Below, piece after piece: positions 9,958 to 31,896 of a stretch of 54,525 nt of DNA. A program made the position numbers and the translations under genes. The notes under the pieces were generated by a model. The model saw nothing but the letters and a program-made list of their open reading frames with translations. It ran no database searches and was not told the DNA's origin. The DNA lies in NCBI GenBank assembly GCA_038041305.1, contig JBBTGV010000033.1, forward strand, positions 1 to 54,525. Reading direction: 5' to 3'. Each line of letters starts with the position of its first letter. The first letter of the stretch is position 1. The DNA is from Deltaproteobacteria bacterium (lineage in GTDB: Bacteria; Desulfobacterota; GWC2-55-46).

Positions 9958-10008
9958 TGCAAAAAATCCCTTTTGCGGTCTTTTTATTATGCATATAATT
10001 GCGAAATC

Positions 10009-10030: not shown

Positions 10031-10117
10031 ATGAAAGACGCAAAACCGTGATTGCCTCTCTTGGCAAAACTTGCTAATATATATAAGGAAATTATAAAAT
10101 AAACGCGGAGTTTAAAA

Positions 10118-10489: not shown

Positions 10490-11559
10490 CCCAATATCTC
10501 CTTCAGCGCCTTTATTAGCAGGGCGTTCTCCCCTCTTTTCCTGACGGCAATCCTGAAAAATTTTTTCCCCAGGCCCGGCCAGGCGCTTAATTCCCGGATT
10601 AGTATGCCCCTTTTTAAAAGCATTGCCTTTAGTTCAGGCGCATCCGGTCTTTTTGACGAGACCCTTACCATCAGGAAGTTTGCGGCGGACGCGTATGGCT
10701 TAAGGCCTTTGACAGATGAGAGGGCGTCATACAAAAATCGTCTTTCGCTTTGAATGAGCCTTAGGGTGTTTTTATGGAAAACCCTGTCGTTTAAAGACGC
10801 GACGGCGGCCTTTGACGCAACCGTGTTTACGGTCCACGGAGGCAGTTTTTCCTTAATTTCCCTTGCCGTGGAGGGATGCGAAATTGAAAAACCGAGCCTT
10901 AGGCCCGCAATGCCGAAGAATTTCGTCAAAGACCTTAATACAATGATGTGCCTTTTGAAAACAGCCTCTTGCCTGATTGAAATGCCTTCATTAAAGTCAA
11001 CAAACGCCTCGTCAACCAAAAGGCGCGTGTTGTGTTTCTTGCAGAGAGAGGAGATCTCCATCATGGATTCTTTTTCTATGGCCGCGCCTGTGGGGTTCGC
11101 CGGGTTTGCGATGCAGACAATCCCGTAGTTTTTTTTTAGCGCCCTTGAGAGCTCGCTTAAGTTTATTGAGAAACCACGGGCCTCCCTCAGCATGAACGAG
11201 TCTGGTTTCAAGCCGTTTAATTCAAGCGCCCTCCTGTATTCGCTGAAGGCGGGCTCAATTATAAGGGCGGTCTTCGGCCTTAAGACCGAGGGTATGAGAT
11301 ATATAAGCTCGGTTGAGCCGTTTGCGGGTATTATGTGTTCCGGGTCCACGCCGTAGAAAGAGGCGATTGCCTGTTTAAGCCCCCTTGAGTCCGGGTCTGG
11401 ATAATGGGGCAGGAGTTTTATTGAGGACTTTATTTCCCTGACTGCGCGGGGCGAAATCCCGAGCGGGTTTATGCTTGCGCTGAAGTCAATTATGCCTGAA
11501 ATGCCCCTCTTGGTCGTCTCCGCCGCATCCCAGACATTGCCTCCGTGGGTGTCTTTCAT
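10486..11559 (-). CDS. cobD: threonine-phosphate decarboxylase CobD (class I/II aminotransferase fold)
   Basis: N-terminal HGGNVW and [10 protein letters not shown] are typical of CobD. PLP lysine region [16 protein letters not shown]. Sits in a cobalamin gene context. A HisC-like aminotransferase cannot be excluded without a search. Confidence 0.7.
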
Positions 11560-11570
11560 CGCGATAAAGA

Positions 11571-12275
11571 TCAGAACCCCAGTATCGCCCTTGCATCAAC
11601 GGCAATGGCGCCTTTCTCATAGACTATAAGCGGGTTTATCTCAAGCTCTTTTATGCCGTGCATGTCCGCCGCGATGTCCGCGAGCTTTACAATCACATCG
11701 GCAATCGCGTCAATATCCTTCGGGTGGTCCCCCCTGAAGCCCGCAAGCAGAGGGTATCCCTTTATCTCCCTTATCATGTCAATGGCGTCCGCCTTTGTTA
11801 TCGGGGCGATCCTGTAGCTTACGTCCCTCATGATTTCAACCGAAATTCCCCCGAGACCGAACATCACGGTCGGGCCGAACTGCTCGTCGTTAACCACACC
11901 GGCAATCACCTCAATCCCCTTTGCGGCCATGCCCTCAACAAGGAAACCCTCTATCTGCGCGAACGGCTTTTCGCATGCCACGGTCAAGACCATCTGCGCC
12001 CACATGTGCTGAAGCTCGTCTATGTCCTTTATTCCGACCGCGACCCCGTGCACCTCGCTTTTGTGCAGTATGTCCGGGGATACGAGCTTAAGCACTATCG
12101 GATACCCGAGGGTCTGGGCCGCCTCTATCGCGGAGCTTACATCCTTTACGAACCTGAACTCGGGCACCGCGATAGAATGCGCCTTTAGAACCTCTTTTGC
12201 GTCAGGCTCAACGAGGACCTTTTTGCCGAGGCTTAACGCCTCCTTTACGAGCCTTTCCGCGCCCCTTCTATCCAT
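11571..12275 (-). CDS. ADP-forming acyl/acetyl-CoA synthetase, beta subunit (ATP-grasp)
   Basis: 234 aa ATP-grasp_5-like: PIVLKLVSPDILHKSEVHGVAVGI...GFLVEGMA...FGLGGISVEI...LEINPL. Overlaps the alpha subunit gene by 8 nt. Confidence 0.75.
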   Translation of the reverse strand: MDRRGAERLVKEALSLGKKVLVEPDAKEVLKAHSIAVPEFRFVKDVSSAIEAAQTLGYPIVLKLVSPDILHKSEVHGVAVGIKDIDELQHMWAQMVLTVACEKPFAQIEGFLVEGMAAKGIEVIAGVVNDEQFGPTVMFGLGGISVEIMRDVSYRIAPITKADAIDMIREIKGYPLLAGFRGDHPKDIDAIADVIVKLADIAADMHGIKELEINPLIVYEKGAIAVDARAILGF

Positions 12276-13662
12276 TGTCTGGTTGGGTTTCCCTTGTTGA
12301 GCCGATCCTTGTTAATACAGAGGCCGCCCTGACCGTTGCCTCAGGCGTCGTGTACACGGGAATGCCCCATTTTTTAAAGAGGGCGTCCCTTTCCCGCGCG
12401 AAACTCCCGCCCGGGGAGCATACCACGACGGGCTTTCCCGACATGGCTGATTTTTCGGAGAGAAGCTGAACAAGGCCGTCCGTAAGGCCCGGGGGGCCCC
12501 AAAGCGCGGCGACTATCGCAAGGTCATAGAAGTCCTTTGACATCGCCTTTTCAAGCGCCTCCGCATAGAGCTCGTCGGTTACGCTCCCAGTCAGGTCCAT
12601 GGGGTTTGACGCGACGAAGAAGGGAGGGAATGAACCGGAGAGTTCCTCTCTGATTGATTCGTCAAGCGGCTGAACGACAAGCCCCGCGGCTGAGGCCGCA
12701 TCCGCAATATTGACCCCCATGCCTCCGCCGTCCGTTATTATCATCACCCTGTTTCCTCTGGACGGCCTCTGAAGGCTTAATGCCCTGCACCCTTCAATAA
12801 GCTCCTCATAACCGGAGACCTCTGTTACGCCGGATTTTTTAAACGCCGCCCTGTAGACCTCGTATCTGCCCGTCATCGCCCCTGTGTGAGAAAGCGCGGC
12901 CGAGGCCCCTGCGTCCATTTTCCCGACCTTTACCGCGAGCACTGGTTTTTTTGCCGTGCATCTTTTAGCGGCCTCAATAAATCTCCTGCCGTCCTCAATT
13001 GATTCAAGGTAGAGGGCGACAACGCCGGTGGCCGGGTCGTCCGCGAGGAATTCAAGGCAATCCGATTCATTGACGTCAACCCTGTTCCCGTAGGACACTA
13101 TCCTTGCAACGCCGATGCCTTCCCTGGCCATCTCATCCATCGCGGTTACGGCAAACGAGCCGCTCTGCGAGATGATGGAAAGAGGGCCTTTCGGGGGCCT
13201 CTTAAGCCTCTCGTGCGGTATGAAAAACGTATCGAGCCCCGAACTGGTGTCAAATACGCCCAGACAGTTTGGCCCCACGACCCTTATGCCGAAGCGCCTT
13301 ACAATGTCTTTTAAGTCCTTTTCAAAGGATTTGCCGGCCTCGTTAATCTCGCCAAAGCCGCCGCTTATGATTATCGCGCATTTAATCTTTCCTACCGCCT
13401 CCTTCAAAAGCCCTACGGCGGGCCTTGCAGGCACTGCGAACACGGCCAGATGCACCTCTGACTCTATCGCTGAAATCGCGGGATAGCATTTCAGGCCGTT
13501 TATTGAATCGTATTTCGGGTTTACGGGGAAGATGGAACCCTTAAAGCCCCCTTTTTTGATGCTCTCCATTATAATGCCCGAGAGCTTACCGGCCTCAGGC
13601 GAGGCGCCTACAACGGCAACCGAGGCGGGATTAAAGAGGAAATCAATCGGGTTTTTACTCAT
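12268..13662 (-). CDS. ADP-forming acyl/acetyl-CoA synthetase, alpha subunit (CoA-binding + ligase-CoA domains)
   Basis: FNPASVAVVGAS (CoA-binding), GPNCLGV, SIISQSGS, and the phosphohistidine loop ALSHTGAMTG. At 464 aa, the same split as archaeal two-subunit ACD enzymes. Confidence 0.8.
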   Translation of the reverse strand: MSKNPIDFLFNPASVAVVGASPEAGKLSGIIMESIKKGGFKGSIFPVNPKYDSINGLKCYPAISAIESEVHLAVFAVPARPAVGLLKEAVGKIKCAIIISGGFGEINEAGKSFEKDLKDIVRRFGIRVVGPNCLGVFDTSSGLDTFFIPHERLKRPPKGPLSIISQSGSFAVTAMDEMAREGIGVARIVSYGNRVDVNESDCLEFLADDPATGVVALYLESIEDGRRFIEAAKRCTAKKPVLAVKVGKMDAGASAALSHTGAMTGRYEVYRAAFKKSGVTEVSGYEELIEGCRALSLQRPSRGNRVMIITDGGGMGVNIADAASAAGLVVQPLDESIREELSGSFPPFFVASNPMDLTGSVTDELYAEALEKAMSKDFYDLAIVAALWGPPGLTDGLVQLLSEKSAMSGKPVVVCSPGGSFARERDALFKKWGIPVYTTPEATVRAASVLTRIGSTRETQPDNG

Positions 13663-13799: not shown

Positions 13800-14804
13800 T
13801 CACAACAGAAATATGGCGAGTATCCTTAAAAGCAGGGTGATGAGAATCATGCCGGCGGCGGTTGTGTGCAATATCTGCACGGTTGAGAGGACATGGCTTT
13901 CGTTAATCTCCGGGCTTGTATCCTTGCAGTCATTTATAAAAGGCTTGTCATGCGCAACGCCGCAATACGTTGAAGGCCCGCCGAGCCTTATCCCGAGGGC
14001 GCCAGCGATTGCCGCCTCGGGATACCCCGCATTGGGGCTCGGGTGCCTGCGGCCGTCCCTGAAAATCGTCTTTACGGCCTTTATCCAGTTGAATCCAAGC
14101 AGGCCCGCCGAGCATGCCATCAACGCCGCAGTAAGACGCGCCGGTATGAAGTTAAGCGCGTCATCAAGCATGGCCGATGCCCGGCCAAGGTCAACGTATC
14201 TTTCGTTTTTGTATCCCACCATTGAGTCAAGGGTATTGACCGCCTTATAGAAAAGCATAAGCGGGGGCCCGCCTATTATAAGATAAAAAAGCGGGGCGAC
14301 GACGCCGTCGGACGTGTTCTCCGCGACGGTCTCAACGGTTGCCCTTAAAACGCCCTGCTCATTGAGCCTCTCCGTGTCCCTGCCGACGATCCCTGAGAGC
14401 GTTTTTCTCGCGTCGTCAATAGCCCCGCAATTAAGGCATTTTAAGACCGCCTTTGCCTCCTTATGAAGCGACCTTATTGATATTGAGGCCCATACCGCGT
14501 ATGTTGAGAGCAGGAAAAAGACCGGGAACGCGTATTTATACGAGAGATAGAGCAGGGCAAGGCATACGAAGTAGGTCCCGAGCGCGATTACCGCGACAAG
14601 GAGAATGCCCGCGTGAAACCTGCCTTTCTTCGTGTCAGGGAATCTTTTTGTTAAAAATCCCTCGGCAAAAATTATTGCCCTGCCTATCCACCTGACGGGA
14701 TGCGGTATTTTTTTCGGGTCCCCTATCGCAAGGTCCAGCGCATAGGCAAGGAGCGCTATAAGGGGGGGGAAGGGTATGATATTAAGGGATTTAAGTATGA
14801 ACAT
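13800..14804 (-). CDS. cbiB: adenosylcobinamide-phosphate synthase CbiB (CobD family membrane protein)
   Basis: ORF 13800..14864. Probable start is ATG 14804 (MFILKSL...LDLAIGDPKKIPHPVRWIGRAI, the CbiB signature). Multi-TM. Overlaps the cobQ end by 14 nt. Confidence 0.85.
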   Translation of the reverse strand: MFILKSLNIIPFPPLIALLAYALDLAIGDPKKIPHPVRWIGRAIIFAEGFLTKRFPDTKKGRFHAGILLVAVIALGTYFVCLALLYLSYKYAFPVFFLLSTYAVWASISIRSLHKEAKAVLKCLNCGAIDDARKTLSGIVGRDTERLNEQGVLRATVETVAENTSDGVVAPLFYLIIGGPPLMLFYKAVNTLDSMVGYKNERYVDLGRASAMLDDALNFIPARLTAALMACSAGLLGFNWIKAVKTIFRDGRRHPSPNAGYPEAAIAGALGIRLGGPSTYCGVAHDKPFINDCKDTSPEINESHVLSTVQILHTTAAGMILITLLLRILAIFLL

Positions 14805-16368
14805 GTTTTGATCTATGGCCCAAGATCCCCAGCACATCCTCAATGGAGACGCTCTTTTCAACAATGGAGGCGATTCGTTCCATGCCCGCGTCCATCTCCG
14901 AGGCGAATGATTTTTTTCGCGAATCGCAGGCTACCCCGGACAGGCCCTTTTTCCTCCGCAGGTGATTTATGAACGAGCGCCTGAAGCCGTCATTGTCAAA
15001 TATGCCGTGCATGTAAGTGCCCCAGACGAGCCTGTCCTCTGAAACGGCCCCGTCAGGGACGTCCGTTTCTTTTGAATTTCTCCTGAAAATACGCGCAAGG
15101 CTTTCATGCCTTGAGTTCGTCTCTCCCATGTGTATCTCGTAGCCTTTTACGATGCATGTCTTCATCTCAGGGGTCTTTGCCTCTGCCTCCACCTGATGGG
15201 TGTTCTTGCGTTTCATCAGCACGGTCTCGGCGTCAAGAAGGCCGATGCCGCGCTCCGAGCCGATTTTCGATTCAACGCCGTGCGGGTCATGGACGACCCT
15301 GCCCAGCATCTGGAATCCGCCGCATATCCCGAATACGAGTTTCCCGGAATTCCTTTCTGCCTTAAGCGCCTCAAAAAATCCGTTTTCCCTGAGCCAGCGC
15401 ATGTCCTCAATCGTGTTTTTAGAGCCCGGCAGCATTATCGCATCCGCGTCCCTAAGCCCCTTGACCGTGGAGGCATAGGCAATGCCTACATCCCCGTGGA
15501 GTTTGAAGGGGTCAAAATCGGTAAAGTTTGATATCCTCGGGACCTTTATGACAACGATATTGACGCGGTCATGGCTTTTCCCTTGTTTTTTATCGTCATC
15601 AAGACACTGGGAGTCCTCTTCGGGATTCACCCCGTCCTTTATATACGGCACGACGCCGAGCACGGGTTTTTTAGTGTGCGCCTCAAGGAATTTCAGGCCG
15701 GGCCTAAGAAGACCGATATCCCCCCTGAATTTGTTTATTATGAATCCCTTTACCCTTTTTTTCTCGCTCTTGCTCAGGAGCTGAAGCGTGCCTATTATTG
15801 ACGCAAAGACCCCGCCCCTGTCTATGTCGCCTATTAAGAGCACGGGCGAATCAATCGCCTCCGCGATGCCCATGTTCGCGATGTCGTTTTCCCTAAGGTT
15901 CACCTCAGCCGGACTTCCAGCCCCTTCCAGCACGATGACGTCGTAAACGGAGGAGAGCCTTTCATAGCTCGCAAGCGCGTATCCCATGGCCTCTTTTTTA
16001 AAGCGATGATACTCCTTTGCGCCCATAACCCCGTAGACCCTGCCGTGTATTATCACCTGCGAGCTTGAATCGGTTGTGGGCTTTAAGAGTATGGGGTTCA
16101 TGTCAAAAGAGGGCTTGATCCTCGCGGCCTCCGCCTGAAAGGCCTGCGCCCTGCCGATCTCGCCCCCGTCCTCTGTTACGAAGGAATTCAGGGCCATGTT
16201 CTGCGCCTTGAACGGCGCGGCCTTAACGCCCATGTTGTTCAATATCCTCAACAGGGCGGCCGTAAGGAGCGTTTTTCCGGCATGGGACTGGGTTGACTGA
16301 AGCATTATGGGTCGTCCCCCGCCCCGGCGGATTCTTTCAGGGACGGTTTTTTTAGTTGATGTGCTCAT
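14791..16368 (-). CDS. cobQ: cobyric acid synthase CobQ/CbiP
   Basis: N-terminal IMLQSTQSHAGKTLLTAALLRIL (DTBS-like P-loop). C-terminal GATase1 domain with FGICGGFQMLG and the YEIHMG His. Confidence 0.9.
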   Translation of the reverse strand: MSTSTKKTVPERIRRGGGRPIMLQSTQSHAGKTLLTAALLRILNNMGVKAAPFKAQNMALNSFVTEDGGEIGRAQAFQAEAARIKPSFDMNPILLKPTTDSSSQVIIHGRVYGVMGAKEYHRFKKEAMGYALASYERLSSVYDVIVLEGAGSPAEVNLRENDIANMGIAEAIDSPVLLIGDIDRGGVFASIIGTLQLLSKSEKKRVKGFIINKFRGDIGLLRPGLKFLEAHTKKPVLGVVPYIKDGVNPEEDSQCLDDDKKQGKSHDRVNIVVIKVPRISNFTDFDPFKLHGDVGIAYASTVKGLRDADAIMLPGSKNTIEDMRWLRENGFFEALKAERNSGKLVFGICGGFQMLGRVVHDPHGVESKIGSERGIGLLDAETVLMKRKNTHQVEAEAKTPEMKTCIVKGYEIHMGETNSRHESLARIFRRNSKETDVPDGAVSEDRLVWGTYMHGIFDNDGFRRSFINHLRRKKGLSGVACDSRKKSFASEMDAGMERIASIVEKSVSIEDVLGILGHRSKHVHT

Positions 16369-20528: not shown

Positions 20529-20601
20529 GCGCCTGTAGCTCAGCGGACAGAGCATCGGCCTCCGAAGCCGAGGGTCAGGAGTTCAAATCTCCTCAGGCGC
20601 G
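20529..20601 (+). tRNA. tRNA-Arg (anticodon CCG)
   Basis: Folded by hand. Acceptor GCGCCTG/CAGGCGC, D arm GCTC..GAGC, anticodon stem TCGGC/GCCGA with loop CTCCGAA, T arm AGGAG-TTCAAAT-CTCCT, discriminator G. No encoded CCA. Confidence 0.9.
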
Positions 20602-20713
20602 CTTGGTTTTTTTAAAAACAAATCAGGCGAAGAACAAACAGCAAAAAAGAAGAAAATACTGCGATGAATGTCTTGCCGGAACACGCCTGTTTTCGGCAAG
20701 GCCTTTTTGTCCA

Positions 20714-20790
<77 letters not shown>

Positions 20791-21282: not shown

Positions 21283-21345
21283 CGCCTTTGTGTTCATTCA
21301 TGCCTTGACTTGTCCGGGATATTCGTTTAAATTACGGAAATAGAT

Positions 21346-21521
21346 GTCAGGTATCCCCATCCGGGGATTTTTAAAAGGGAATCCCGTGATCTGCGCTGAG
21401 CAGAGATTCGGGAGCGGTCCCGCCGCTGTAACCGGGTACGAAGGCCGACAATGCCACTGGGGATTAAACCCCGGGAAGGCTGAGCCGTAGGATTATCCGG
21501 GAGCCAGAAGACCTGCCTGAC
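21346..21521 (+). promoter_or_regulatory. cobalamin (B12) riboswitch 1
   Basis: AAAAGGGAATCCCGTGA..., CCCGCCGCTGTAA, GCCACTGG...CCCGGGAAGGC, and the B12 box GAGCCAGAAGACCTGCC. P1 pairs GTCAGGT (21346-21352) with GCCTGAC (21515-21521). The first 24 nt of the core are identical to riboswitch 2. Confidence 0.8.
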
Positions 21522-21616
21522 GCATAGCGTAGCATTAAAGCCTTCTCGCGGACAGGAAGGCCCCTTAAGGACTTTAGTCTTTGGGGTAGGAAACTGAGGG
21601 TCAAGAAACAGGGTGC

Positions 21617-21649
21617 AATCCTCGGAGTTAAGGCTCCGGGGATTTTTTT
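21617..21649 (+). terminator. riboswitch expression-platform terminator (attenuator)
   Basis: AATCCTCGGAG (21617-21627) / CTCCGGGGATT (21634-21644) stem with one mismatch, merging into a T-run to 21649. Confidence 0.55.
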
Positions 21650-21786
21650 ATTTCAATCGGATGCCCGGCTTGACCCGCCCCTTCAGGGCGTGGGTCGGCC
21701 GGGCCACAGAAAAGAAAAATGCCTTGCCGACAATCCCGGCCATTTTTGGCAGGCGATTGAAAATTATTTCAACAAGGAGACAAGAC

Positions 21787-23088
21787 ATGACGCAGATAGA
21801 GGCCGCAAGAAAGGGCGTTATAACCAATGAGATGAGGGAGGTCTCCGCAAGAGAGGGGCATACTCCGGAATACATAATGGAGATGATAGCCCTCGGCAGG
21901 GTCGTGATTCCAAACAACAAAAACAGGAAGGCAAGGCTCGTCGGCATAGGCGCAGGGCTAAGGACAAAGGTCAATGCGAGCATCGGCACCTCGTCCGACA
22001 TAGTTGACGCAAAGGCAGAGGTGGAAAAGGCGGTTGCCGCCGAAGAGGCGGGGGCGGACACATTAATGGAGCTCTCGGTCGGAGGCGACTTGGACAGCAT
22101 AAGAAAGCAGGTGCTTGGGGCAACGAACCTCTCGGTGGGCAGCGTCCCGCTTTATCAGGCGTTTAAGGAGGCGATAGAAAAGTATCACGACCCGAATAAA
22201 CTGACAGAGGGGCTTTTGTTTGATGTGATTGAGAGGCAGTGCGAAGACGGCATATCCTTCATGGCCGTGCACTGCGGCATAACGAGGCTTACGATAGAGA
22301 GGCTAAACAGGCAGGGTTACCGCTACGGGGGGCTTGTCTCAAGGGGGGGATCCTACATGGTGGGCTGGATGCTTAAGAACAACAGGGAAAATCCCCTTTA
22401 CGAGAGGTTTGACCGCGTTGCCGGGATACTTAAGAAATACGACTGCGTCCTAAGCCTCGGCAATGGCCTGAGGGCCGGCGCCGTGCACGACAGCCTTGAC
22501 AGGGCGCAGGTGCAGGAGCTTTTGATAAACTGCGAGCTTGCCGAGACGGGCCAGGACATGGGATGCCAGATGATGTGCGAGGGCCCCGGGCACCTGCCGT
22601 TGGACGACATAGAGGCCAATGTAAGGCTTCAGAAAAGGATGAGCGCGGATGCGCCTTTTTACGTGTTGGGCCCTCTTACAACCGACATTGCCGCGGGCTA
22701 TGACCACATATCCGCCGCAATCGGGGCCGCCGAGGCCGCAAGATACGGGGCGGACCTCATATGCTATGTCACCCCGGCGGAGCATCTGGCCCTGCCGAAC
22801 AAGGAAGATGTCGTTGAAGGGGTGAGGGCGGCTCGTATCGCGGCCCATGTCGGCGACATGGTAAAGCTCAAAGGCAGGGACAGGGACATGCGCATGGCAA
22901 AGGCAAGAAGGGATTTGAAATGGGATGAGCAGCAAAGGCTCGGTCTTTTCGGGGAAAGGGCCGCACAAATAAGGGCGAGCCGCGCGCCGGACAATTCCGA
23001 CACATGCACCATGTGCGGGAGCTTCTGCGCCCTTGACAATGTCAATGCCTTTTTCAGGGAATGCCTTGAAAAAGGCCCGAAACGCTGA
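21787..23088 (+). CDS. bzaF: ThiC-family radical-SAM enzyme; given the B12 riboswitch, probably 5-hydroxybenzimidazole synthase (BzaF-type) rather than HMP-P synthase ThiC
   Basis: Start at ATG 21787 (MTQIEAARKGVITNEM, SD AAGGAGA 7 nt upstream). ThiC hallmarks are present throughout (NASIGTS, LMELSVGG, VPLYQA, MCEGPGH, VTPAEHL) with the C-terminal CTMCGSFCAL cluster motif. The ORF-track start 21613 lies inside the attenuator. Confidence 0.8.
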   Translation: MTQIEAARKGVITNEMREVSAREGHTPEYIMEMIALGRVVIPNNKNRKARLVGIGAGLRTKVNASIGTSSDIVDAKAEVEKAVAAEEAGADTLMELSVGGDLDSIRKQVLGATNLSVGSVPLYQAFKEAIEKYHDPNKLTEGLLFDVIERQCEDGISFMAVHCGITRLTIERLNRQGYRYGGLVSRGGSYMVGWMLKNNRENPLYERFDRVAGILKKYDCVLSLGNGLRAGAVHDSLDRAQVQELLINCELAETGQDMGCQMMCEGPGHLPLDDIEANVRLQKRMSADAPFYVLGPLTTDIAAGYDHISAAIGAAEAARYGADLICYVTPAEHLALPNKEDVVEGVRAARIAAHVGDMVKLKGRDRDMRMAKARRDLKWDEQQRLGLFGERAAQIRASRAPDNSDTCTMCGSFCALDNVNAFFRECLEKGPKR

Positions 23089-23345: not shown

Positions 23346-24806
23346 ATGCAACGCGCACTGGACGCACTGGAAAACCTAATAGATGAAACATTAAGCCCGC
23401 GCTACAACCCGCTTTATTGCCTCGGCGCCATCTGCGTATTCTTCCTATGGGTGCTTTTAGTAAGCGGCGTATACCTCTTTGTATTCTATAAGATAGGCAG
23501 CCCCTATGAATCCGTTAAGACAATAACCGAGAATCAGTGGATGATCGGCGCGTTTTTCCGGGGCATGCATCGTTATTCAGCGGACGGCCTTGTGTTTTTC
23601 GCGCTTTTACACCTAAGCCGCGAGTTCATAAGGGGAAGGTTTCGCCACGGGAGGTGGACGCAGTGGGTTACCGGCGTACTGACGCTCGGCGTCATATGGA
23701 CAACAGGGGTCATCGGGTACTGGATGGTATGGGACCAGAGGAGCCAGCTCGTAGCCGAACTCTCCTCAAAACTCCTTGATTACCTGCCCATATTCGGCGA
23801 ATCCCTGTCAATCGCCTTTACAACGCCGGAGCTTGTCACGAACCTTTTCTTTCTCATAGCTTTATTCCTGCACCTTACGCTTCCGGTGCTTCTTTTCATA
23901 TTCATATGGCTTCATGTCATGAGGGTGACAAAGCCCCGCATACACCCGCCGAGGCCCGTCTATGCAGGGGTCGCCGTCTCCCTTGCCTTTATGGCCGTAT
24001 TCGCGCCGGTTAAAAGCCTTTTGCCCGCGAATACGGATAAGATTATTTCAGTTATCGGCATTGATTGGTTCTACCTCTTTATATATCCGATGCTAAACAG
24101 CGCTCCTGCCTGGCTTTCGTGGCTTACCATCTCCGCGTCTACGGCTGTTCTCATTGCCGTGCCGTGGATATTCCCAAAAAAAAGGCCGGCCCCGGCAGCG
24201 ATAAAAACAGAGAACTGTTCGGGATGCGCCGTATGCCGCGAGGAATGCCCGTATTCCGCCATATTCATAAGGCCCTCAGGGCCCGATGCAGGCACCGCCG
24301 AGGTGATACCCTCAAGGTGCGCCAGCTGCGGCATATGCGTCGGGTCATGCGCGTTCAACGCAGTGGACTTTCCCATTAAGAGGCACGAGGACATAATGGC
24401 GGAGATTTCCGCAAAGGTCCTCGGCGCGGGCAATAAAGGCCCTTTTAAGCTCTTTTTCGCCTGCTCGCACATAAGCGGCCTTGACCATGCCTTTGCAGGG
24501 CATGCCGGGCCGGATATGCGCCAAGCGGGTCTTATAAAACTCCCGTGCGCCGGCATGGTGAATGCCGGCTGGATTGAATACGCCCTCAAGCTCGGGGCGG
24601 GCAATGTGGTCATCTTAGGGTGCAAAGAGGGCGCCGGGTGGTACCGCACAGGAAATACGCTTTTGTCAGAGAGGGTCGCGATGCTTTCTGATAAGGACAA
24701 TGCCTCAAGGGTCAGCGTTCACCTCACGTCAAGGCTGACTGAAAAGACGCTCCATGAGCGCATAAGCGCGGTAAATGAGGGGGTTCGCCTAACCGGAGAT
24801 GTTTAA
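23346..24806 (+). CDS. fusion protein: bc-type cytochrome b (helices A-F) + 2x[4Fe-4S] ferredoxin + MvhD/FlpD-like domain
   Basis: Two H-x13-H haem-ligand pairs (MHRYSADGLVFFALLH; LHLTLPVLLFIFIWLH), GYWMVWDQ, and an ef-loop IDWFYLFIYPML in place of PEWY. After TM6 come CSGCAVCREECP and CASCGICVGSCA, then LIKLPCAGMVNAGWIEYALKLGAGNVVILGCKEGAGWYRTGN (MvhD-like). Confidence 0.75.
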   Translation: MQRALDALENLIDETLSPRYNPLYCLGAICVFFLWVLLVSGVYLFVFYKIGSPYESVKTITENQWMIGAFFRGMHRYSADGLVFFALLHLSREFIRGRFRHGRWTQWVTGVLTLGVIWTTGVIGYWMVWDQRSQLVAELSSKLLDYLPIFGESLSIAFTTPELVTNLFFLIALFLHLTLPVLLFIFIWLHVMRVTKPRIHPPRPVYAGVAVSLAFMAVFAPVKSLLPANTDKIISVIGIDWFYLFIYPMLNSAPAWLSWLTISASTAVLIAVPWIFPKKRPAPAAIKTENCSGCAVCREECPYSAIFIRPSGPDAGTAEVIPSRCASCGICVGSCAFNAVDFPIKRHEDIMAEISAKVLGAGNKGPFKLFFACSHISGLDHAFAGHAGPDMRQAGLIKLPCAGMVNAGWIEYALKLGAGNVVILGCKEGAGWYRTGNTLLSERVAMLSDKDNASRVSVHLTSRLTEKTLHERISAVNEGVRLTGDV

Positions 24807-25347
24807 AAAAGCCCTGAAATGTTTAGCCGCAGTAATCGCGCTGGCCGCGCCTCTGGCCGTGGTGCTCTTTTTTTCAGAGTCGGATTACGGATTTTACGAC
24901 CCGCAAAGCGCGGTCTTGAAGTTGAGCATAAAGCACGCCGGGCACAGGACGGTTGAGTGCGACGACATGCAGATCCTTAAAGAGGAGGCCGAACGATACA
25001 GGGCCATGATCAAGGATACCAAGAGCGCGAAGATGAAGCTTAAAAAGCTCGGCTCGTGCAGCAGGGGCAGAAACCCGGTGTATGTTGAGCTGTATGCCGA
25101 TGAAAGGCTTCTGGTCTCAGGGTCGTTTGAGGCTGGCGGATGGACAAAGGACGGTGCGTCCTTCATATACGGCAAATATCCGATAGCGCCGGGAAAGAGG
25201 CGCGTTGTCGTAAAGATGCGCGATTCAGGGCAGTCGGATGCCTTTGATTATTCGTTCAGCAAGGAAGTGGAGTTTGAGGCAGGACGCTTAAGGGTCGTTA
25301 AATTTGACGAGACAGGCAAGAAAATCTTTGTGCAGCAGGCTCCATGA
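24799..25347 (+). CDS. hypothetical membrane-anchored protein
   Basis: 182 aa with an N-terminal TM/signal anchor (LKCLAAVIALAAPLAVVLFF), then a beta-rich soluble domain. No recognisable motif. Its start overlaps the upstream gene by 8 nt. Confidence 0.55.
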   Translation: MFKKALKCLAAVIALAAPLAVVLFFSESDYGFYDPQSAVLKLSIKHAGHRTVECDDMQILKEEAERYRAMIKDTKSAKMKLKKLGSCSRGRNPVYVELYADERLLVSGSFEAGGWTKDGASFIYGKYPIAPGKRRVVVKMRDSGQSDAFDYSFSKEVEFEAGRLRVVKFDETGKKIFVQQAP

Positions 25348-25396: not shown

Positions 25397-26233
25397 TCAA
25401 TCCAGGAGCTTTGGACTGCCCCTTCTAAAAAGTTTATATACTATCCAGACAAGGGTCGCCCCCTGAAGGGCCGAGCCTAACGCGAGCGCCGCTATCGCGC
25501 CGAAGTTAAGCCTGTAAATGCCCGAGACCTCGTCATAGCGGTAGCAGAAAAGTATCACCTTGTCTATTATGCCCGAGGGGTTTAAGAAGGCCGAGGCAAC
25601 CCCTGAGCCGGAGGCAAGAACCACGGCGTTGACAAGCTCCTCCTGATTGAAGTTCATGCCGTAGACCTGCTTTAGTATCGTCCCGTCCCTGCCAACTACG
25701 GTTGTGAGGTTCATGTGGTCAAAACCCCCGTCCGGGAGCCTCTCATAATAAAAACCGAGTTCCTTTGTGAGGGCCTGTATTGTCTTTGCGCCGGCGGTTG
25801 CAAACCTCCATTTGGTGAAGTCGTCCGTAAAGCGCGCGCCAAAAGACTTAAGCACGGACGGGGTGTCATGATCGGGGTCAAAGCCGATTGAGAGGGCCGT
25901 AAAATCCCCGCCTGATTTCATCTTTGCGATGGCGAAGGCCTGCTTGAGCCTGCCCGTTATGTTGGAGCAGACATGCGGACAACTCGTGTATATGTAGCTT
26001 ATGACGAGCGGCCTGCCCATAAGCCCTTTGAGGGGAAGGGCATTGTTGTCCTGATCAATAAGCGTGTAGCCGGGTATTTTTTTGCCTATCGCCGCGTTTG
26101 CCGTTGCAACTGGGTCCGAGGCCCATAGGGGCGTTGCAGGGCCTGAGATTAAGGCAACGAGGGACACGACAAAGGCAATAAGCGTATTTTTGGAATAAAG
26201 GCGGCTCATTCCGCTAACGTAGAGAGATGTCAA
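25397..26233 (-). CDS. SCO1/SenC family copper chaperone with extra C-terminal TM segment
   Basis: Thioredoxin-like fold with the CPHVC motif (YIYTSCPHVCSNI). N-terminal anchor and a C-terminal hydrophobic tail. An alternative start at ATG 26209 is possible. Confidence 0.85.
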   Translation of the reverse strand: MTSLYVSGMSRLYSKNTLIAFVVSLVALISGPATPLWASDPVATANAAIGKKIPGYTLIDQDNNALPLKGLMGRPLVISYIYTSCPHVCSNITGRLKQAFAIAKMKSGGDFTALSIGFDPDHDTPSVLKSFGARFTDDFTKWRFATAGAKTIQALTKELGFYYERLPDGGFDHMNLTTVVGRDGTILKQVYGMNFNQEELVNAVVLASGSGVASAFLNPSGIIDKVILFCYRYDEVSGIYRLNFGAIAALALGSALQGATLVWIVYKLFRRGSPKLLD

Positions 26234-27089
26234 GTATCACGGACAGGAAAAGTCCGCTTAGATATATCATGGAGGCCCTGAAATTCCTCCGCGCGATCTC
26301 CTTTGACTGGTCGCGGATGAACTCAATGTTCCTGTAAATGAAAAAAGCGCCGAATATAACGGCAGAGGCCGTGTATACGCTGCCGAGGAACCCGAACCAC
26401 ACCGGCAGCAGGGACGAGAGCACGAGAAGCAGGGTGTTCAGGAGCACGTACCGGGCGGTCTTGAAATCCCCTATGATGTTAGGCAGCATGGGGATGCCGG
26501 CCCTGCCGTATTCCTCTCTGTGGAGGACCGCGAAGCTCCAGAAGTGCGACGGGGTCCAGAAAAACATCACAACGGCAAGGAATACCGGCAGCAGGCAGAA
26601 CTCAGGAGAGGCCGAGGCCCCGCCCGCAAGCACGGCAAAGCTGCCCGCCAGCCCGCCGATGACTATGTTAATCCAGCTCCGCCTCTTCAGCCACACGGTG
26701 TATACGATTGCGTAGACAAAGCCGCCGAGGAAGAGGTGCAGGGCGACCATGGGGTTAAGCACCTTAAGGGAAAGCAGTATTGACGCGATGAACAGCCCCG
26801 TTGCCGCGATAAGAATCCTGCCTGAGCCCGCCACATGGCCGGCGGGCAGGGGTCTCTTTTCCGTCCTCTTCATTATGAGGTCTATGTCCCTGTCAAAATA
26901 ATGGTTGAACGCGCTTGCGCCCGCGGAGGCCATCATGGTAACGAGCGCGAGATACAACAGGGTTGATGCGGATACTGATACGCCAGCGTTTGACGAGGAT
27001 ATAAGGCCCACGATCGCGGTGAATGTTATAAGGGAGCAGATCCGGAATTTAAAAAGCGGCAAATAGTTTTTAAGCGAGGCCGAGGTCAT
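26214..27089 (-). CDS. ctaB: protohaem IX farnesyltransferase (haem O synthase)
   Basis: UbiA-family polytopic protein with NHYFDRDIDLIMKRTEKRPLPAG and FWTPSHFW motifs. 4-nt overlap with the upstream gene. Confidence 0.9.
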   Translation of the reverse strand: MTSASLKNYLPLFKFRICSLITFTAIVGLISSSNAGVSVSASTLLYLALVTMMASAGASAFNHYFDRDIDLIMKRTEKRPLPAGHVAGSGRILIAATGLFIASILLSLKVLNPMVALHLFLGGFVYAIVYTVWLKRRSWINIVIGGLAGSFAVLAGGASASPEFCLLPVFLAVVMFFWTPSHFWSFAVLHREEYGRAGIPMLPNIIGDFKTARYVLLNTLLLVLSSLLPVWFGFLGSVYTASAVIFGAFFIYRNIEFIRDQSKEIARRNFRASMIYLSGLFLSVILDISLR

Positions 27090-28522
27090 GCCGCCTCCCC
27101 CGGGGGTTCTGCCAAGGCCTTGCGCCTTAACAGCGAGAGCCCGGCATTGGCGACGAACATCGCCCCGCCTATTATGGCCACGAGGCCGCCGAGCCCGAAA
27201 ACGGCCATGCTCAGGAGCTTGATCGGGTCGTCAAGGTTCTGCGCCGCCCCGAAGGTCTTTCTCGCCACCCCGTGCGAGCCCGCCCAGAACATCCCGAGCA
27301 CGAAAAGCGTTTGCCCTATGCCGAACACGTACGGCTGAATGGAGGCCGCCTTCTCGGAGTAAAGGGTTCCCTTTAGGTTCCGGATTAGATGATACGCCAT
27401 GCCCATGAACGCCGCCGTCACGCCGCCGATTGCGCCGTGGTAATGCGAAGGTATCTTGGTGTTGTATCCGTGTATGAACATTGACATGAGGCCCCCGAGC
27501 GCAAAAAGGACAATAGACATCGCAAGGGATGCAAACTCCGGGCTTCGCCACGGGAGTTTTTTAATCCCTTCATAAAGGCCGCTTGTCCTGCCCGGCGAGG
27601 CGGACGCTACGACAACGGCCGCGAATATCACCGTGGAAGGCCCAAGGCCGAACTGCATGAGCCTTGTGAAGACCGTCCTGTAGCCCATGGTGTCCACGTC
27701 GTAGAACAGGTATGCAAACGGCGCAAAGGCTACGCTTGCCAGATACAGGCCGAAGACGGGTCTGCCAAGGGCCGCCTGTATGGAGATCTTCTTAAACAGG
27801 ACATCCGCGAGATAAAGCCATACAGAGGCCATTGCCATTGTGTTCGCGAACTGGAGCATGTGCCCGCCGCCCCAGAAAAGCGTCTCAAGGTCCGCTGTCC
27901 CTATCCCCGCGCCTGAGGAGGTCTTAAAATAGAAAGACAGCGCAAAACACATAAAGGCCACGAAGACCGCAATACTTGACGCAATCATACCGAACCTCAC
28001 AAGGGCCGTTGAACCGCGGTATCCGTTCCCTTTGATCCCGTAAAAAACCGTTAAAAAGACATTTGCGAGCAGTATAAGCATTCCCGCGGCAAGCAGCAGG
28101 AGCCCCGCGTAAAAGGCCGGATGGTTCAGCACCGGCACATAATTGATGAAAAGCGGAGTTCCGAGCCCCAAGAGGGATGCGGCTATTATGACGGCCGTGC
28201 CGCAGACCGACGCGGCGAGGCCCGCCCATCCGAGGATTGGGCTAAAGACCCCTGTTGAGAGGAAGTCCGTGCTCCCCAACAGCCACAGCGCGCCCTCAAA
28301 GGCAAGAAACCATATCACAAAGGCGAGATTGACGTGCGCAACGAGCGCAACGCGCACATAATCGGTTGAAGGGAATATGGACTGGATGAAAGGGGTGCGC
28401 GCCATTGCCACGAGGAATGCGAATACGCCCGCAAATATGAGAGAAACGACCGCGAAAAGCACAAGGCCGTAGAAAAGTCTTTTGCTGTGTTTGTTTTCGG
28501 ACAGACCTTTTATGTTATTCAT
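27086..28522 (-). CDS. haem-copper oxidase subunit-I-like paralogue lacking the helix-VII CuB histidine pair
   Basis: About 12 TM. Helix II His (VALVAHVNL), helix VI LFWGGGHMLQF (compare FWFFGHPEVY), and helix X HGYNTKIPSHYHGAIGG (compare HNT...GHFH). Where the neighbouring paralogue has SEHHLLVDP, this protein has TRLMQFGLGP. Confidence 0.7.
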   Translation of the reverse strand: MNNIKGLSENKHSKRLFYGLVLFAVVSLIFAGVFAFLVAMARTPFIQSIFPSTDYVRVALVAHVNLAFVIWFLAFEGALWLLGSTDFLSTGVFSPILGWAGLAASVCGTAVIIAASLLGLGTPLFINYVPVLNHPAFYAGLLLLAAGMLILLANVFLTVFYGIKGNGYRGSTALVRFGMIASSIAVFVAFMCFALSFYFKTSSGAGIGTADLETLFWGGGHMLQFANTMAMASVWLYLADVLFKKISIQAALGRPVFGLYLASVAFAPFAYLFYDVDTMGYRTVFTRLMQFGLGPSTVIFAAVVVASASPGRTSGLYEGIKKLPWRSPEFASLAMSIVLFALGGLMSMFIHGYNTKIPSHYHGAIGGVTAAFMGMAYHLIRNLKGTLYSEKAASIQPYVFGIGQTLFVLGMFWAGSHGVARKTFGAAQNLDDPIKLLSMAVFGLGGLVAIIGGAMFVANAGLSLLRRKALAEPPGEAA

Positions 28523-28584: not shown

Positions 28585-28719
28585 TTAATGGAGCTCCCAG
28601 ATTGTTGAGAGGTACTTAAAGTTCAGAAAATAAACCGCTATGAAGGTGATTAGGAATATGAGCGCAAGCACGAATGTGCCGGGCGCTACGAACCTTCCGT
28701 TGCCGTGTTCGTCTGACAT
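28585..28719 (-). CDS. small single-TM protein (44 aa), possible oxidase subunit IIa-like peptide
   Basis: Below the ORF-track size cutoff. ATG at 28719 is preceded by GGGAGG 9 nt upstream. Translation MSDEHGNGRFVAPGTFVLALIFLITFIAVYFLNFKYLSTIWELH. Fills the gap between the two subunit-I-like genes. Confidence 0.55.
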   Translation of the reverse strand: MSDEHGNGRFVAPGTFVLALIFLITFIAVYFLNFKYLSTIWELH

Positions 28720-28753: not shown

Positions 28754-30268
28754 CTATGCGAGTTTTTTGCCGTACATTACGGTTCCAAGCGTTACGACCA
28801 CGTACGCGATGCCGCCGAGCGCCGCGAGTATCGCCCCTATGCCGAACACCCCTATCCACATGTAGACGGTCGGGTCCCACGAGAAGGCGAACGGAGAGCC
28901 GCCGAAGTTGACGATGTCCCAGTGCCTCCTCGGGACGCCGTATGCGCCGGCAAGCATCATGCCTCCGCTTACAAGCGTAATGCCGACGCCGAAGAGCCAC
29001 GGCTGTATCTTGGCGAGCTTCATTGCCCAGACCTCCCTCCTGAATATCAAGGGGAGTATGTAGTAGGTGACGGCCATGAAGGCCATGGTGGTGCCTCCCA
29101 CGACCGTTCCGTGGAAGTGCCCCGTGATCCTCCATGTGTTGTGGGCGGTGATGTTGATCTGCTCTGTGCCGAATGTCACGCCCGTGATGCCGCCCAGGAA
29201 CCCGAACATGAATATGGAGAGTATCGCCCCTGAAAAGGCGGGGTTGCCCCACGGCGCCATCTTGAACCACTCAAACAGGCCCTTTGTGTAGCCCTGCTTC
29301 CTGAGCGCCACCTCCATGCCCGCGGGCACCGCGAGGGCGTGTATCATGCTGGCAAGCACCGCCAGATGCATGATGTAGCCCGTGTTCCATATCTTGTGCG
29401 CGTTGGAGAATACCGGGTCAACGAGCAAGTGGTGCTCGGAGGCGACGTTTATAAAGAGTATGTAGAGCACGAAGGCCGTCCTGCAGAGCTTCTCGTTTAT
29501 GGGCTTCATGCCGACCGAGAGCGCCCCGATGAGGTACCATATTGAGATCATGGCGCAGACGTTAATCTGCTGGGATGCATGTCCGAGCGCCCACCATACG
29601 AGCCTGTAAGCCGAGGGGTCCATGCCCGTAAGCCCGAGCGACCAAAGGAGCGTCGGGATATAGATGCCGGCCCCGTGCAGGAGCGTCGTCGTTGCGATAG
29701 CGGCCGCCGCGAAAAGCCCGAATGTCACGAGCGGGAAGCTCTGGGCCGTATAGGTCTTTTCCTTTCTTGCCTTGTAGAGCGTGGCGAAGAAGAGAAAAAC
29801 GCCGATAAGCGCGCCCACGGCGAAAAGTATTATGCCGGTGTAATAGAACGGGTGGGCCATCAGCGGCGGATACGACGTAAAGAGCACGTCCGCCTTGCCC
29901 GAAAGCACCATTATGTTCGTAAGCACGGCCCCGCCGAGCATGAGGAAGTAAGATATCCACCCGACGGTAGGCGCCGCGAGCCTTGAGTTCAGGAGCACCG
30001 CGCTTCCTATGTAGAGGGCGGCCACCTCAAAGAATATTACCCATACGATAAGCATGTCAAGGCCGTGAGCCGTCAGGACCCTGTAGAACCACTCGGCCGG
30101 CAGTATGTGGAACGCGGGCCAGCGTGTGAACGCGGCGCCGAGGGCGGCAAGCCCGCCTATTGCTATGAATATGACCGCCGTGATAGTATTTGCCTTTATG
30201 AGCTTTTCCGCCGGCAGATGCACCTTAAGGCCGGTAACGGAACAAGTCCTGAATTCCTGCTCGTTCAT
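28754..30268 (-). CDS. haem-copper oxidoreductase subunit I, B-family-like, without the cross-linked tyrosine (NOR-like active site)
   Basis: Helix II YRVLTAHGLDML. Helix VI WWALGHASQQINV (Gln where A/B-family oxidases have Tyr). Helix VII SEHHLLVDP. Helix X AHNTWRITGHFHGTVVGG. Confidence 0.85.
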   Translation of the reverse strand: MNEQEFRTCSVTGLKVHLPAEKLIKANTITAVIFIAIGGLAALGAAFTRWPAFHILPAEWFYRVLTAHGLDMLIVWVIFFEVAALYIGSAVLLNSRLAAPTVGWISYFLMLGGAVLTNIMVLSGKADVLFTSYPPLMAHPFYYTGIILFAVGALIGVFLFFATLYKARKEKTYTAQSFPLVTFGLFAAAAIATTTLLHGAGIYIPTLLWSLGLTGMDPSAYRLVWWALGHASQQINVCAMISIWYLIGALSVGMKPINEKLCRTAFVLYILFINVASEHHLLVDPVFSNAHKIWNTGYIMHLAVLASMIHALAVPAGMEVALRKQGYTKGLFEWFKMAPWGNPAFSGAILSIFMFGFLGGITGVTFGTEQINITAHNTWRITGHFHGTVVGGTTMAFMAVTYYILPLIFRREVWAMKLAKIQPWLFGVGITLVSGGMMLAGAYGVPRRHWDIVNFGGSPFAFSWDPTVYMWIGVFGIGAILAALGGIAYVVVTLGTVMYGKKLA

Positions 30269-30277
30269 TGTTGCCTC

Positions 30278-30823
30278 CTATTTGACTATCAATTTCCCGA
30301 CCATGGTGTGGTGCCCAAGGCCGCAGTATTCGTTGCAGAGTATTGAAAACTCCCCGCTTGTGGTCGGCTTTATGGTCAGCACGTAGTCCTGTCCGGGTAT
30401 TGCCATAAAGTTGATGTTCATCGGATATATTGAAAACCCGTGCTGAAAATCCAGGGATGAAAGATGCAGCCTGTAAGTCTTGTTCTTTTCAAGCTCAAGT
30501 ATTGGGTCAAAGTTCCACGCCTTCGCGACAAGGAAGATGTCGGAGCCCGCCGGCGGATGCACGACCGCGAACCCGTTTATGGAGACCGGGGCGTTGTTTT
30601 CGTCCCGGACCTGATATTTGCTTATGAACTCATCGGCCAGCGCGCTGAAGCGTTCAGGCGTCACCTTGTAGGATTCCGAGGAAGGGTTCTGCTTTCCCAT
30701 CACATGCCATAAGGGCATCATGGAGAAGGTGAAGATCATCCATACGAGCGCAAGGATGAGCCAGATCTTTTCCTCCCTGTCTATCGGTTTCCACCAGACC
30801 CTTTCCGGTGCGGTTAAACTCAT
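30278..30823 (-). CDS. haem-copper oxidase subunit II, single-TM cupredoxin with complete CuA site
   Basis: DFQHGFSI ... FSILCNEYCGLGHHTMVGKLIV provides all CuA ligands (H, C, C, H, M). The size and single TM resemble ba3-type subunit II. Confidence 0.85.
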   Translation of the reverse strand: MSLTAPERVWWKPIDREEKIWLILALVWMIFTFSMMPLWHVMGKQNPSSESYKVTPERFSALADEFISKYQVRDENNAPVSINGFAVVHPPAGSDIFLVAKAWNFDPILELEKNKTYRLHLSSLDFQHGFSIYPMNINFMAIPGQDYVLTIKPTTSGEFSILCNEYCGLGHHTMVGKLIVK

Positions 30824-30850: not shown

Positions 30851-30997
30851 TTAAGGTAATGTAGGCTGAGACCAGACTTCCCAGAGCCCCCAGAGCGTAT
30901 AGGAAACAACGGTAATCGCAAGCCCGAGGATAAAAAGGAGCGGAAGATTATCGTAAAATCTCTGCCCCGAAGGCACCTTCCCGCTGCTGTCTTCCAT
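30851..30997 (-). CDS. small single-TM protein (48 aa) at the head of the oxidase operon
   Basis: Below the ORF-track cutoff. ATG 30997 with a GGGGGA SD-like element upstream. Translation MEDSSGKVPSGQRFYDNLPLLFILGLAITVVSYTLWGLWEVWSQPTLP. Its stop lies 27 nt before the subunit II start. Confidence 0.5.
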   Translation of the reverse strand: MEDSSGKVPSGQRFYDNLPLLFILGLAITVVSYTLWGLWEVWSQPTLP

Positions 30998-31123: not shown

Positions 31124-31137
31124 CTGATTTTTATCAT
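31124..31137. promoter_or_regulatory. candidate FNR/DNR(CRP-family) box
   Basis: CTGATTTTTATCAT compared with TTGAT-N4-ATCAA: both TGAT/ATCA cores are present with a 4-nt spacer. Located in the divergent region between the oxidase operon and the hemerythrin gene. Confidence 0.35.
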
Positions 31138-31200
31138 TCTTTTTATTGTCTTATTCGTGCAGAATGTTTATATTGAAAAACATTGGAGGAAAAATCACAC

Positions 31201-31896
31201 ATGGAGAATGTTATGTTTATGGAAAAAACGCTGGACGTAAGGGGAATGGAGCCGAGGCTCAGGCACCCGAAGATATTTGAGACCTTCAGGGCATTGGCGC
31301 CCGGGGAATCCTTTGTGCTCATAAACGACCATGAGCCGAGGCCGCTTCTTTACCAGTTCCAGGCTGAGCACGACGGCGAGTTTGAGTGGTGGCCCCTTGA
31401 GCAGGGTCCTGTTGACTGGAGGGTTTCAATAGGAAAAAGAAAGGTTAGGGATTTGGACAGGACCATCACCGACTACATGCAGACGGACCACAGGCGGCTG
31501 GATGCCCTATACGGCGCATTTCAGGAGAAATACAAACAGGGCGACTGGGCCGGCGCGGACGCGCTCTTCAGGGAATTCAGCCTCGGCTTAAGAAGGCACA
31601 TAAAGGTTGAGGAGGAGATACTTTTTCCCGTGTTTGAGGAAAAAACAGGCATGAAGGACGCGGGCCCGACCTTCGTGATGCGCATGGAGCACGGCGAGAT
31701 AAAGGAGCTTCTTGACGGCATCCTTGCGGGCATCGGCAGGAAGGACGAGGCGGGCGTAAAGAACTCGGAATACAACCTCGCGAACATACTCGCTGACCAC
31801 AACATGAAGGAAGAGCACATACTCTATCCCGAATCCGACGCGTTTATAGCCGGCAGGGAGCGCGCGGACGTCATAAAAAAATCTCAGGCCGCTTAA
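31201..31896 (+). CDS. DUF2249 + hemerythrin-like (HHE cation-binding) domain protein
   Basis: N-terminal LDVRGMEPRLRHPKIFETF...FVLINDHEPRPL (DUF2249-like). C-terminal DHRRLD..., HIKVEEEILFPVFEE, MEHGEIKELL and DHNMKEEHILYP (di-iron hemerythrin ligand pattern). SD GGAGGA lies 10 nt before ATG 31201. Confidence 0.8.
   Translation: MENVMFMEKTLDVRGMEPRLRHPKIFETFRALAPGESFVLINDHEPRPLLYQFQAEHDGEFEWWPLEQGPVDWRVSIGKRKVRDLDRTITDYMQTDHRRLDALYGAFQEKYKQGDWAGADALFREFSLGLRRHIKVEEEILFPVFEEKTGMKDAGPTFVMRMEHGEIKELLDGILAGIGRKDEAGVKNSEYNLANILADHNMKEEHILYPESDAFIAGRERADVIKKSQAA

Follow-up and report, generated by a model that had tools for sequence, protein, structure and literature searches.

We analysed a contig of 54,525 nucleotides (called here the window; NCBI GenBank assembly GCA_038041305.1, contig JBBTGV010000033.1) from a Deltaproteobacteria bacterium (Desulfobacterota; GWC2-55-46) and found on its minus strand an operon that most likely encodes a nitric oxide (NO) reductase (NOR) of the eNOR type, a B-family-derived member of the haem-copper oxidoreductase (HCO) superfamily. 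It is a new member of an already described family with one characterised member, and it adds a member to this family but no new principle. The operon contains the genes for subunit I (28754..30268, minus strand) and subunit II (30278..30823, minus strand), with subunit I starting nine bases after the open reading frame (ORF) of subunit II stops. The main grounds for this assignment are the active site of subunit I and its family membership.

Subunit I (504 aa) matched the Pfam family PF00115 with an E value of 4.5e-60, and its best relative of solved structure was the ba3 oxidase of Thermus thermophilus, a B-family enzyme (E = 1e-34). A preliminary description of the sequence had listed six canonical histidines in subunit I, and all six aligned with metal or haem ligands of ba3: H68, H230, H279, H280, H384 and H386 corresponded to ba3 H72, H233, H282, H283, H384 and H386. 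By this alignment, H68 and H386 are the ligands of the low-spin haem, H384 is the ligand of the high-spin haem, and H230, H279 and H280 bind the non-haem metal. The same description had read helix VI as GHASQQ, devoid of the tyrosine that is normally cross-linked to a histidine. This proved correct, as the motif GHASQQIN (29561..29584, minus strand), which is diagnostic of eNOR, aligned without gaps to GHPIVYFW of ba3 (WWALGHASQQIN against ba3 WWTGHPIVYF), so that ba3 Y237 corresponds to Q234. Because Q233, Q234 and N236 were conserved, together with the histidine ligands, across 86 relatives, the replacement of Tyr by Gln is not a sequencing accident. The residues kept in all 86 sequences were H68, E81, H230, Q233, Q234, N236, Y245, Y269, H279, H280, H310, E319, H384; S307 was found in 85 of them, and so was H386, the Thermus member having a Lys instead.

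Subunit I also retained a K-channel-like set of residues when compared with ba3 (S307 for S309, H310 for T312, Y245 for Y248 and N258 for S261); the ba3 K-path residues are those reported by Chang et al. 2009. Apart from the Gln at position 234 and the His at position 310, it differed from ba3 by an Ile (Ile241) in place of Y244. The invariant Glu81 of helix II sets the eNOR-like family apart from four Tyr-bearing B-family sequences, which have Ile or Ala, and from ba3, which has Ala. It had been pointed out in the preliminary description that a Tyr from another helix might stand in for the missing one, as in C-family enzymes. The C-family Tyr position, six residues before the HH pair, was occupied by an isoleucine (I273, invariant in an alignment of 18 sequences). 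The other tyrosines could be placed at the level of sequence only: Y269, which is invariant, precedes the HH pair by ten residues, and Y245 aligns, as indicated above, with a K-path residue. Migration of the Tyr has not been reported for these B-derived NOR families (Murali et al. 2024, PMC11214002).

We noted an additional acidic residue, Glu278 (29435-29437, minus strand), directly before the two metal-binding histidines, where the protein reads ASEHH and most relatives read ASAHH. This Glu was present in 18 of the 86 relatives, all from a subclade with a short, split-helix subunit I (Thermodesulfobacteriota, Nitrospinota, Nitrospirota). Because of this limited distribution, we rejected the idea that it is an extra metal ligand for the whole family.

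To assign the enzyme to one of the NOR families, we used the active-site residues that PMC8756737 lists for each of them in a table (Table A4) adapted from Hemp & Gennis 2008. According to this table, the position of the cross-linked Tyr is occupied by Y in oxygen reductases, E in cNOR and qNOR, N in sNOR and CuANOR/bNOR, Q in eNOR and D in gNOR, and the 'characteristic Gln' is used in the same paper (section 3.3) to call eNOR homologs. Since a Gln at the Tyr position is thus the published marker of eNOR, we assign the enzyme of the window to eNOR and not to sNOR. The equivalent of ba3 S309, which is S307 in the window protein, is a residue that eNOR and bNOR retain; sNOR has lost this serine and has a conserved Glu at another place in the channel (Murali et al. 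2024, PMC11214002). Two other families are excluded by their ligands (PMC11214002). In gNOR, an active-site His is replaced by Asp and the cupredoxin of subunit II is devoid of CuA ligands, while we found the three metal-binding histidines and a full CuA ligand set. In nNOR, the low-spin haem has His/Met ligation and the active site contains a cNOR-like Glu, while the ligation is His/His here (H68/H386) and the Tyr position is a Gln. The preliminary description had proposed a non-canonical NOR family of B-family descent and had recommended a comparison of the active-site columns. The proposal was supported by this comparison, and the Gln, which matches the eNOR column, together with S307 allowed us to name the family.

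Further evidence for this assignment was obtained with a neighbour-joining tree, in which the sequences with a Gln formed a monophyletic clade (96/100 bootstraps). The members of this clade were 47-97% identical to subunit I of the window, as compared to 26-30% for Tyr-bearing B-family oxidases, which were encoded by plasmids of Haloarcula, Deinococcus, Variovorax and Geobacillus and fell outside the clade. A scan of one genome per species detected relatives in at least 596 species genomes, distributed over many phyla and both domains. The published count of eNORs in GTDB, 547, is of similar magnitude (Murali et al. 2024, PMC11214002). Full-length relatives (47-53% identical) were also found by tblastn on plasmids, namely on T. 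thermophilus megaplasmids, on the Thermomicrobium roseum megaplasmid and on a Defluviimonas plasmid, and all of these had the motif GH..QQ.N. The Thermus megaplasmid member has the Lys mentioned above at the position of a low-spin haem ligand (HFK), which fits the His/Lys ligation described for 'some eNORs' (Murali et al. 2024, PMC11214002). The T. roseum member is followed by CtaA-CtaB, a published trait of eNORs. The Defluviimonas cluster shared with the window the order subunit II, subunit I, haem O synthase, SCO and cytochrome b-FeS protein, which is that of the eNOR operon of Ferrigenium straubiae KS (eNOR II, eNOR I, haem O synthase, sco1, with a protein of unknown function and a cytochrome b + Fe-S protein nearby; bioRxiv 10.64898/2026.01.22.701106).

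The characterised member of the family is the enzyme of Rhodothermus marinus, which contains haem As at both haem sites and reduces NO at 0.68 per second (PMC11214002). A second described member, the 'cytochrome a1-like' haemoprotein of Magnetospirillum magnetotacticum, has a function that was never determined (PMC11214002). The window system resembles the family of these two proteins in its B-family descent, the CuA-containing subunit II, the Gln in place of Tyr, the broad phylogenetic spread, the K-channel-like residues (including the S309 equivalent) and the presence of haem biosynthesis genes in the operon. Unlike the characterised eNORs, it has CtaB, with no CtaA found, and an additional HCO-like paralog. 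It also differs from the longer eNOR relatives by its subunit I of about 500 aa, by the C-terminal helix being encoded by a gene of its own (44 aa), and by the Glu beside the His pair.

Subunit II (181 aa) consists of one transmembrane helix, predicted at residues 20-38, and a CuA cupredoxin domain. It matched the Pfam families COX2 and Cupredoxin_1 weakly, and its best relatives of solved structure were two B-family subunits II, that of Aquifex and that of the T. thermophilus ba3 enzyme (E ~1e-12). In these alignments, its HGF motif and the stretch CNEYCGLGHHTM fell on the residues that form the CuA ligand motif in ba3. The CuA ligands (H128, C163, E165 through its main chain, C167, H171 and M174) were at least 95% conserved in 83 relatives, as was E18, the equivalent of E15 of ba3 subunit II. 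Both the complete CuA ligand set and the single-helix, ba3-like layout announced in the preliminary description were therefore confirmed. The ORFs of both subunits were also found exactly where that description had placed them.

Two small hydrophobic proteins accompany these subunits. An ORF of 48 codons for a single-helix protein (30851..30997, minus strand) was found just upstream of subunit II, and a small hydrophobic ORF with the signature GQ[RK][FL]YDN..LL..G....YT.WG..E was present at this place in 77 of 82 related loci, with annotated small hypothetical genes in Thermus, Defluviimonas and T. roseum. This place is that of the subunit IIa gene in the ba3 operon, which also lies upstream of subunit II. 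A second single-helix protein, of 44 aa (28585..28719, minus strand), aligned with a C-terminal extension (...FVLYYFVNWKYLSELW...) that forms part of subunit I itself in Defluviimonas, Thermus and T. roseum, which indicates that this protein is the C-terminal helix of subunit I encoded by a separate gene. This helix was a separate ORF in 24 loci and was fused in the longer relatives, the subunit I of which has about 570 aa. The split is typical of the subclade with a subunit I of about 500 aa to which the window protein belongs. Overall, the system shares with T. thermophilus ba3 (PDB 1EHK, 3S8F) the six histidines, the CuA motif, a single-helix subunit II, a small helical subunit encoded upstream and a similar K-path.

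From the homology to the ba3 oxidase and to the eNOR characterised in R. marinus, we infer an NO reductase activity, the identity of the active-site metal (Fe or Cu), the haem type, a proton path and the nature of the electron donor. The donor would be a periplasmic one-electron carrier, probably a c-type cytochrome or a cupredoxin, reducing the binuclear CuA of subunit II, from which electrons would flow to the low-spin haem (H68/H386) and on to the active site made of the high-spin haem (H384) and the non-haem metal (H230/H279/H280). Gln234 would occupy the place of the cross-linked Tyr of oxidases. Without this Tyr, the site could not supply the fourth electron needed for splitting O2, while the two-electron reaction 2NO + 2e- + 2H+ -> N2O + H2O would still be possible. 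Protons would probably come from the cytoplasm through the K-channel-like path (E18 of subunit II, then H310, S307, Y245 and N258 of subunit I), and with such an uptake the reaction would be electrogenic. The complex is predicted to comprise four polypeptides, namely subunits I and II together with the 48-aa helix and the 44-aa C-terminal helix, and the haem O synthase and the SCO copper chaperone of the operon would provide its haem and CuA cofactors.

The genomic context modestly supports a link with NO. A divergent gene (31183..31896, plus strand) encodes a protein with DUF2249 and hemerythrin domains, as mentioned in the preliminary description and confirmed here by domain matches in Pfam; it also had weak YtfE/RIC-like matches. 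Its adjacency was conserved only in the closest relatives and was sporadic elsewhere (6 of 90 loci). The preliminary description had also reported an FNR/DNR-like box, but this did not hold. The sole intergenic candidate, CTGATTTTTATCAT (31124..31137), is a weak FNR-like palindrome with two mismatches to TTGAT-N4-ATCAA, and it is no better than chance, as 31 sites of this quality occur in the window against ~21 expected by chance. In a close relative (locus L001), the corresponding position reads TGACAAAAATCA. The Thermus eNOR-like subunit I with the HFK motif, encoded on a plasmid of T. thermophilus HB5018 (locus L084, 8983-10665), adjoins genes for a two-domain multicopper oxidase/cupredoxin protein, a cytochrome c, an Rrf2 regulator, a DUF542 protein and a YwiC-like protein.

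It is very improbable that the operon encodes an ordinary ba3-type cytochrome c oxidase of the B family, reducing O2. Such a reading has in its favour that ba3 is the best solved relative, that oxidases typically have CuA, the six histidines, the K-channel-like set, a haem O synthase and SCO, and that relatives are automatically annotated as 'cbb3-type' or 'b(o/a)3-type cytochrome c oxidase subunit I'. However, the cross-link Tyr is a Gln in every one of the 86 relatives, the alternative C-family position is taken by I273, and genuine Tyr-bearing B-family enzymes are distant and lie outside the clade. Moreover, the R. marinus eNOR did not reduce O2 with any donor tried (PMC11214002), so the characterised enzyme of this family is an NO reductase and not the O2 reductase that the preliminary description had considered as an alternative. 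Judged from its sequence, the window enzyme would likewise be expected to reduce NO and, unlike ba3, not O2. We see next to no chance that it belongs to sNOR (the norSY-senC type of ammonia oxidisers) or to bNOR/qCuANOR, as found in Bacillus azotoformans, although these families share with it the B-family descent, the CuA subunit and the loss of the Tyr, and published sNOR clusters also contain a senC/SCO gene. By their published descriptions, sNOR and bNOR both have an Asn at the Tyr position (PMC8756737), where the window protein has a Gln; the serine that is lost in sNOR is present in nearly all relatives; and bNOR has been reported only in Bacillales (PMC11214002), unlike the widely distributed family studied here. 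SCO genes are also common beside eNOR, so that the likeness to norSY-senC clusters put forward in the preliminary description pointed to the wrong family, while the SCO1/SenC gene itself was indeed present.

There is a slim chance that the protein belongs to eNOR but serves a physiological reaction other than respiratory NO reduction, either NO detoxification only or the conversion of another small molecule at a modified active site. The neighbouring hemerythrin/DUF2249 protein, with its weak YtfE/RIC-like matches, would fit this, as would the subclade-specific Glu278 beside the metal ligands and the low turnover of the one eNOR that has been assayed. The lack of nir or nos genes in the 54.5 kb, detailed below, points the same way, but what a single window lacks is a poor guide to the genome as a whole. 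In addition, all family-invariant residues are kept, including Q233, Q234 and N236, and the literature associates the absence of the Tyr from B-derived families with NO reduction (Murali et al. 2024, PMC11214002).

Several observations weigh against our assignment to eNOR and the function that we derive from it. Neither nirS, nirK or nosZ nor any other nir or nos gene was found among the annotated ORFs of the window, a few short ORFs being outside the scan. Genes related to NO were also few in a random sample of 150 neighbour ORFs from 80 loci (three Rrf2 regulators, two multicopper oxidases and one cytochrome d1), in which SCO1 (10), c-type cytochromes (5 and 4) and Rrf2 came up repeatedly. 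CtaA was not found in the window, although the haem of the R. marinus eNOR is of the a-type and is made by an enzyme that depends on O2. The closest relatives of the subunit I gene are annotated as belonging to Thermodesulfobacteriota or Deltaproteobacteria metagenome-assembled genomes (MAGs). Lineages of these groups include many anaerobes. Furthermore, the link to the characterised eNOR is made through fingerprints taken from the literature and not through a direct alignment or tree: neither tblastn against plasmids nor a protein search with the Defluviimonas homolog as query returned a Rhodothermus or Magnetospirillum sequence. Finally, a single eNOR has been assayed, and the window protein is from a separate subclade, characterised by a length of about 500 aa, the split C-terminal helix and the extra Glu278.

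Downstream of the eNOR genes, the operon contains a gene (27086..28522, minus strand) for a B-type HCO-like paralog of 478 aa, which matched PF00115 (2e-17). This protein retains the histidines of helices II and VI and the H-x-H of helix X, and thus both haem-ligand sets, but the His pair of helix VII, which would bind FeB or CuB, was absent in 20 of 20 copies from related loci. We rejected a recent duplication of subunit I as its origin, as the two share only 19-28% identity and the paralog forms a clade of its own (100/100 bootstraps); some very large tree distances were undefined, which makes the branching inside this clade unreliable. A profile search indicated a family of ~694 clusters at 50% identity (E <= 1e-30), some members of which exist as fusions with haem O synthase, with cytochrome b or with TPR domains. 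The AlphaFold model of the paralog (pLDDT 82.7) was most similar to ba3 (TM 0.80). No description of the 478-aa paralog was found in the eNOR literature cited here. In two Nitrospinota MAGs (L009, 843-3970; L035, 3880-6952), we observed a second eNOR-like subunit I (56% identity) followed by a very divergent COX1-like gene (26% identity), which grouped near the paralog clade in the tree.

The stop codon of the paralog overlaps the start codon of the next gene (26214..27089, minus strand), which encodes a haem O synthase (CtaB/CyoE), as indicated by a match to TIGR01473 above the curated cutoff (2e-79) and by a match to the UbiA family. It is followed by the gene for a SCO1/SenC copper chaperone (25397..26233, minus strand; PF02630 at 2e-16), likely to act in CuA assembly. 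SCO genes were detected by BLAST in 44 of 90 loci, and the Pfam census of neighbours contained 10 more divergent copies. Because it is present without eNOR genes in a Deltaproteobacteria MAG (GCA_016177845.1, locus L091), the pair formed by the paralog and CtaB is a separable module. In that locus, the paralog is found at positions 10001-12765 along with a UbiA-family gene resembling haem O synthase and with a small cytochrome c, no subunit I or II of eNOR being nearby. This stretch adjoins NifU, ferredoxin, DUF1858, ScdA_N and Mrp-like genes. The paralog is thereby associated with haem O synthase. It may modify haem, serve as a scaffold for assembly or be a haemoprotein in its own right that needs haem O. 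One possibility would be for it to replace the O2-dependent haem A synthase CtaA and to allow the maturation of a haem-a-type NOR without oxygen. The notion that CtaA and the paralog are mutually exclusive neighbours was not supported, since CtaA was found, with a home-made hidden Markov model, in only 3 of 90 loci, one of which (L056) had both.

Convergent with the operon is a gene (23346..24806, plus strand) for a fusion of cytochrome b, two [4Fe-4S] clusters and a FlpD/MvhD-like domain, as recognised by Pfam. It adjoined the eNOR genes in 67 of 90 loci, whereas the Ferrigenium preprint qualifies the cytochrome b-FeS genes as 'rather unusual'. Four histidines (H75, H89, H176 and H190), which would hold two b haems, and 11 cysteines were at least 90% conserved in 61 sequences, and a Qo-like IDWF replaced the PEWY motif of bc1 complexes. 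The protein occurs in two length classes, of ~510 and ~665 aa. One Ferrigenium copy has additional FAD and NADH domains, in contrast to the window copy, which is limited to the domains listed above, and the Ferrigenium genes are co-directional with the operon, unlike those of the window. The end of the fusion gene overlaps a gene for a membrane-anchored protein of 182 aa (24799..25347, plus strand) with no match in Pfam or NCBIfam. In 13 loci it came after the cytochrome b fusion, and its residues C54, C87, R89 and R91 were conserved. The fusion protein could couple a Qo-type quinol site to the CuA of eNOR without a Rieske protein, the second electron going to a cytoplasmic acceptor. A supercomplex coupling NO reduction to NAD+ reduction has been floated for Ferrigenium (bioRxiv 10.64898/2026.01.22.701106). 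All in all, we consider it doubtful, though conceivable, that the operon goes beyond a standard eNOR, with the paralog acting as a haem-handling enzyme or scaffold, possibly in place of CtaA, and/or the cytochrome b fusion feeding the CuA of eNOR.

Other features of the window concern mostly cobamides. A cobalamin riboswitch (21332-21534, plus strand; 122.6 bits) lies directly upstream of a radical SAM gene of the ThiC family (21613-23088, plus strand). Since a thiamine gene would be unexpected behind a B12 riboswitch, this may be a BzaF/HBI synthase-type gene, involved in the formation of the lower ligand of cobamides. A second cobalamin riboswitch (50050-50260, plus strand) precedes CbiX/CbiC and CbiM genes for cobalt uptake and corrin synthesis, and CobD and CobQ genes are found at 13800-16368. 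The window also contains genes for tRNA-Arg(ccg) (20529-20602, plus strand) and tRNA-Lys(ctt) (20715-20790, plus strand).

Recognition of the operon as an eNOR operon would give NO-reducing potential to an uncultured lineage, the closest gene relatives being in the Thermodesulfobacteriota and Deltaproteobacteria MAGs mentioned above. When genes of the eNOR type are taken for oxidase genes, a capacity to produce nitrous oxide may be overlooked and an aerobic lifestyle wrongly inferred. The finding also raises the question of how a family reported to need an O2-dependent a-type haem would mature in likely anaerobes, and that of the roles played by the FeB-less paralog and by the widely conserved cytochrome b-FeS partner.

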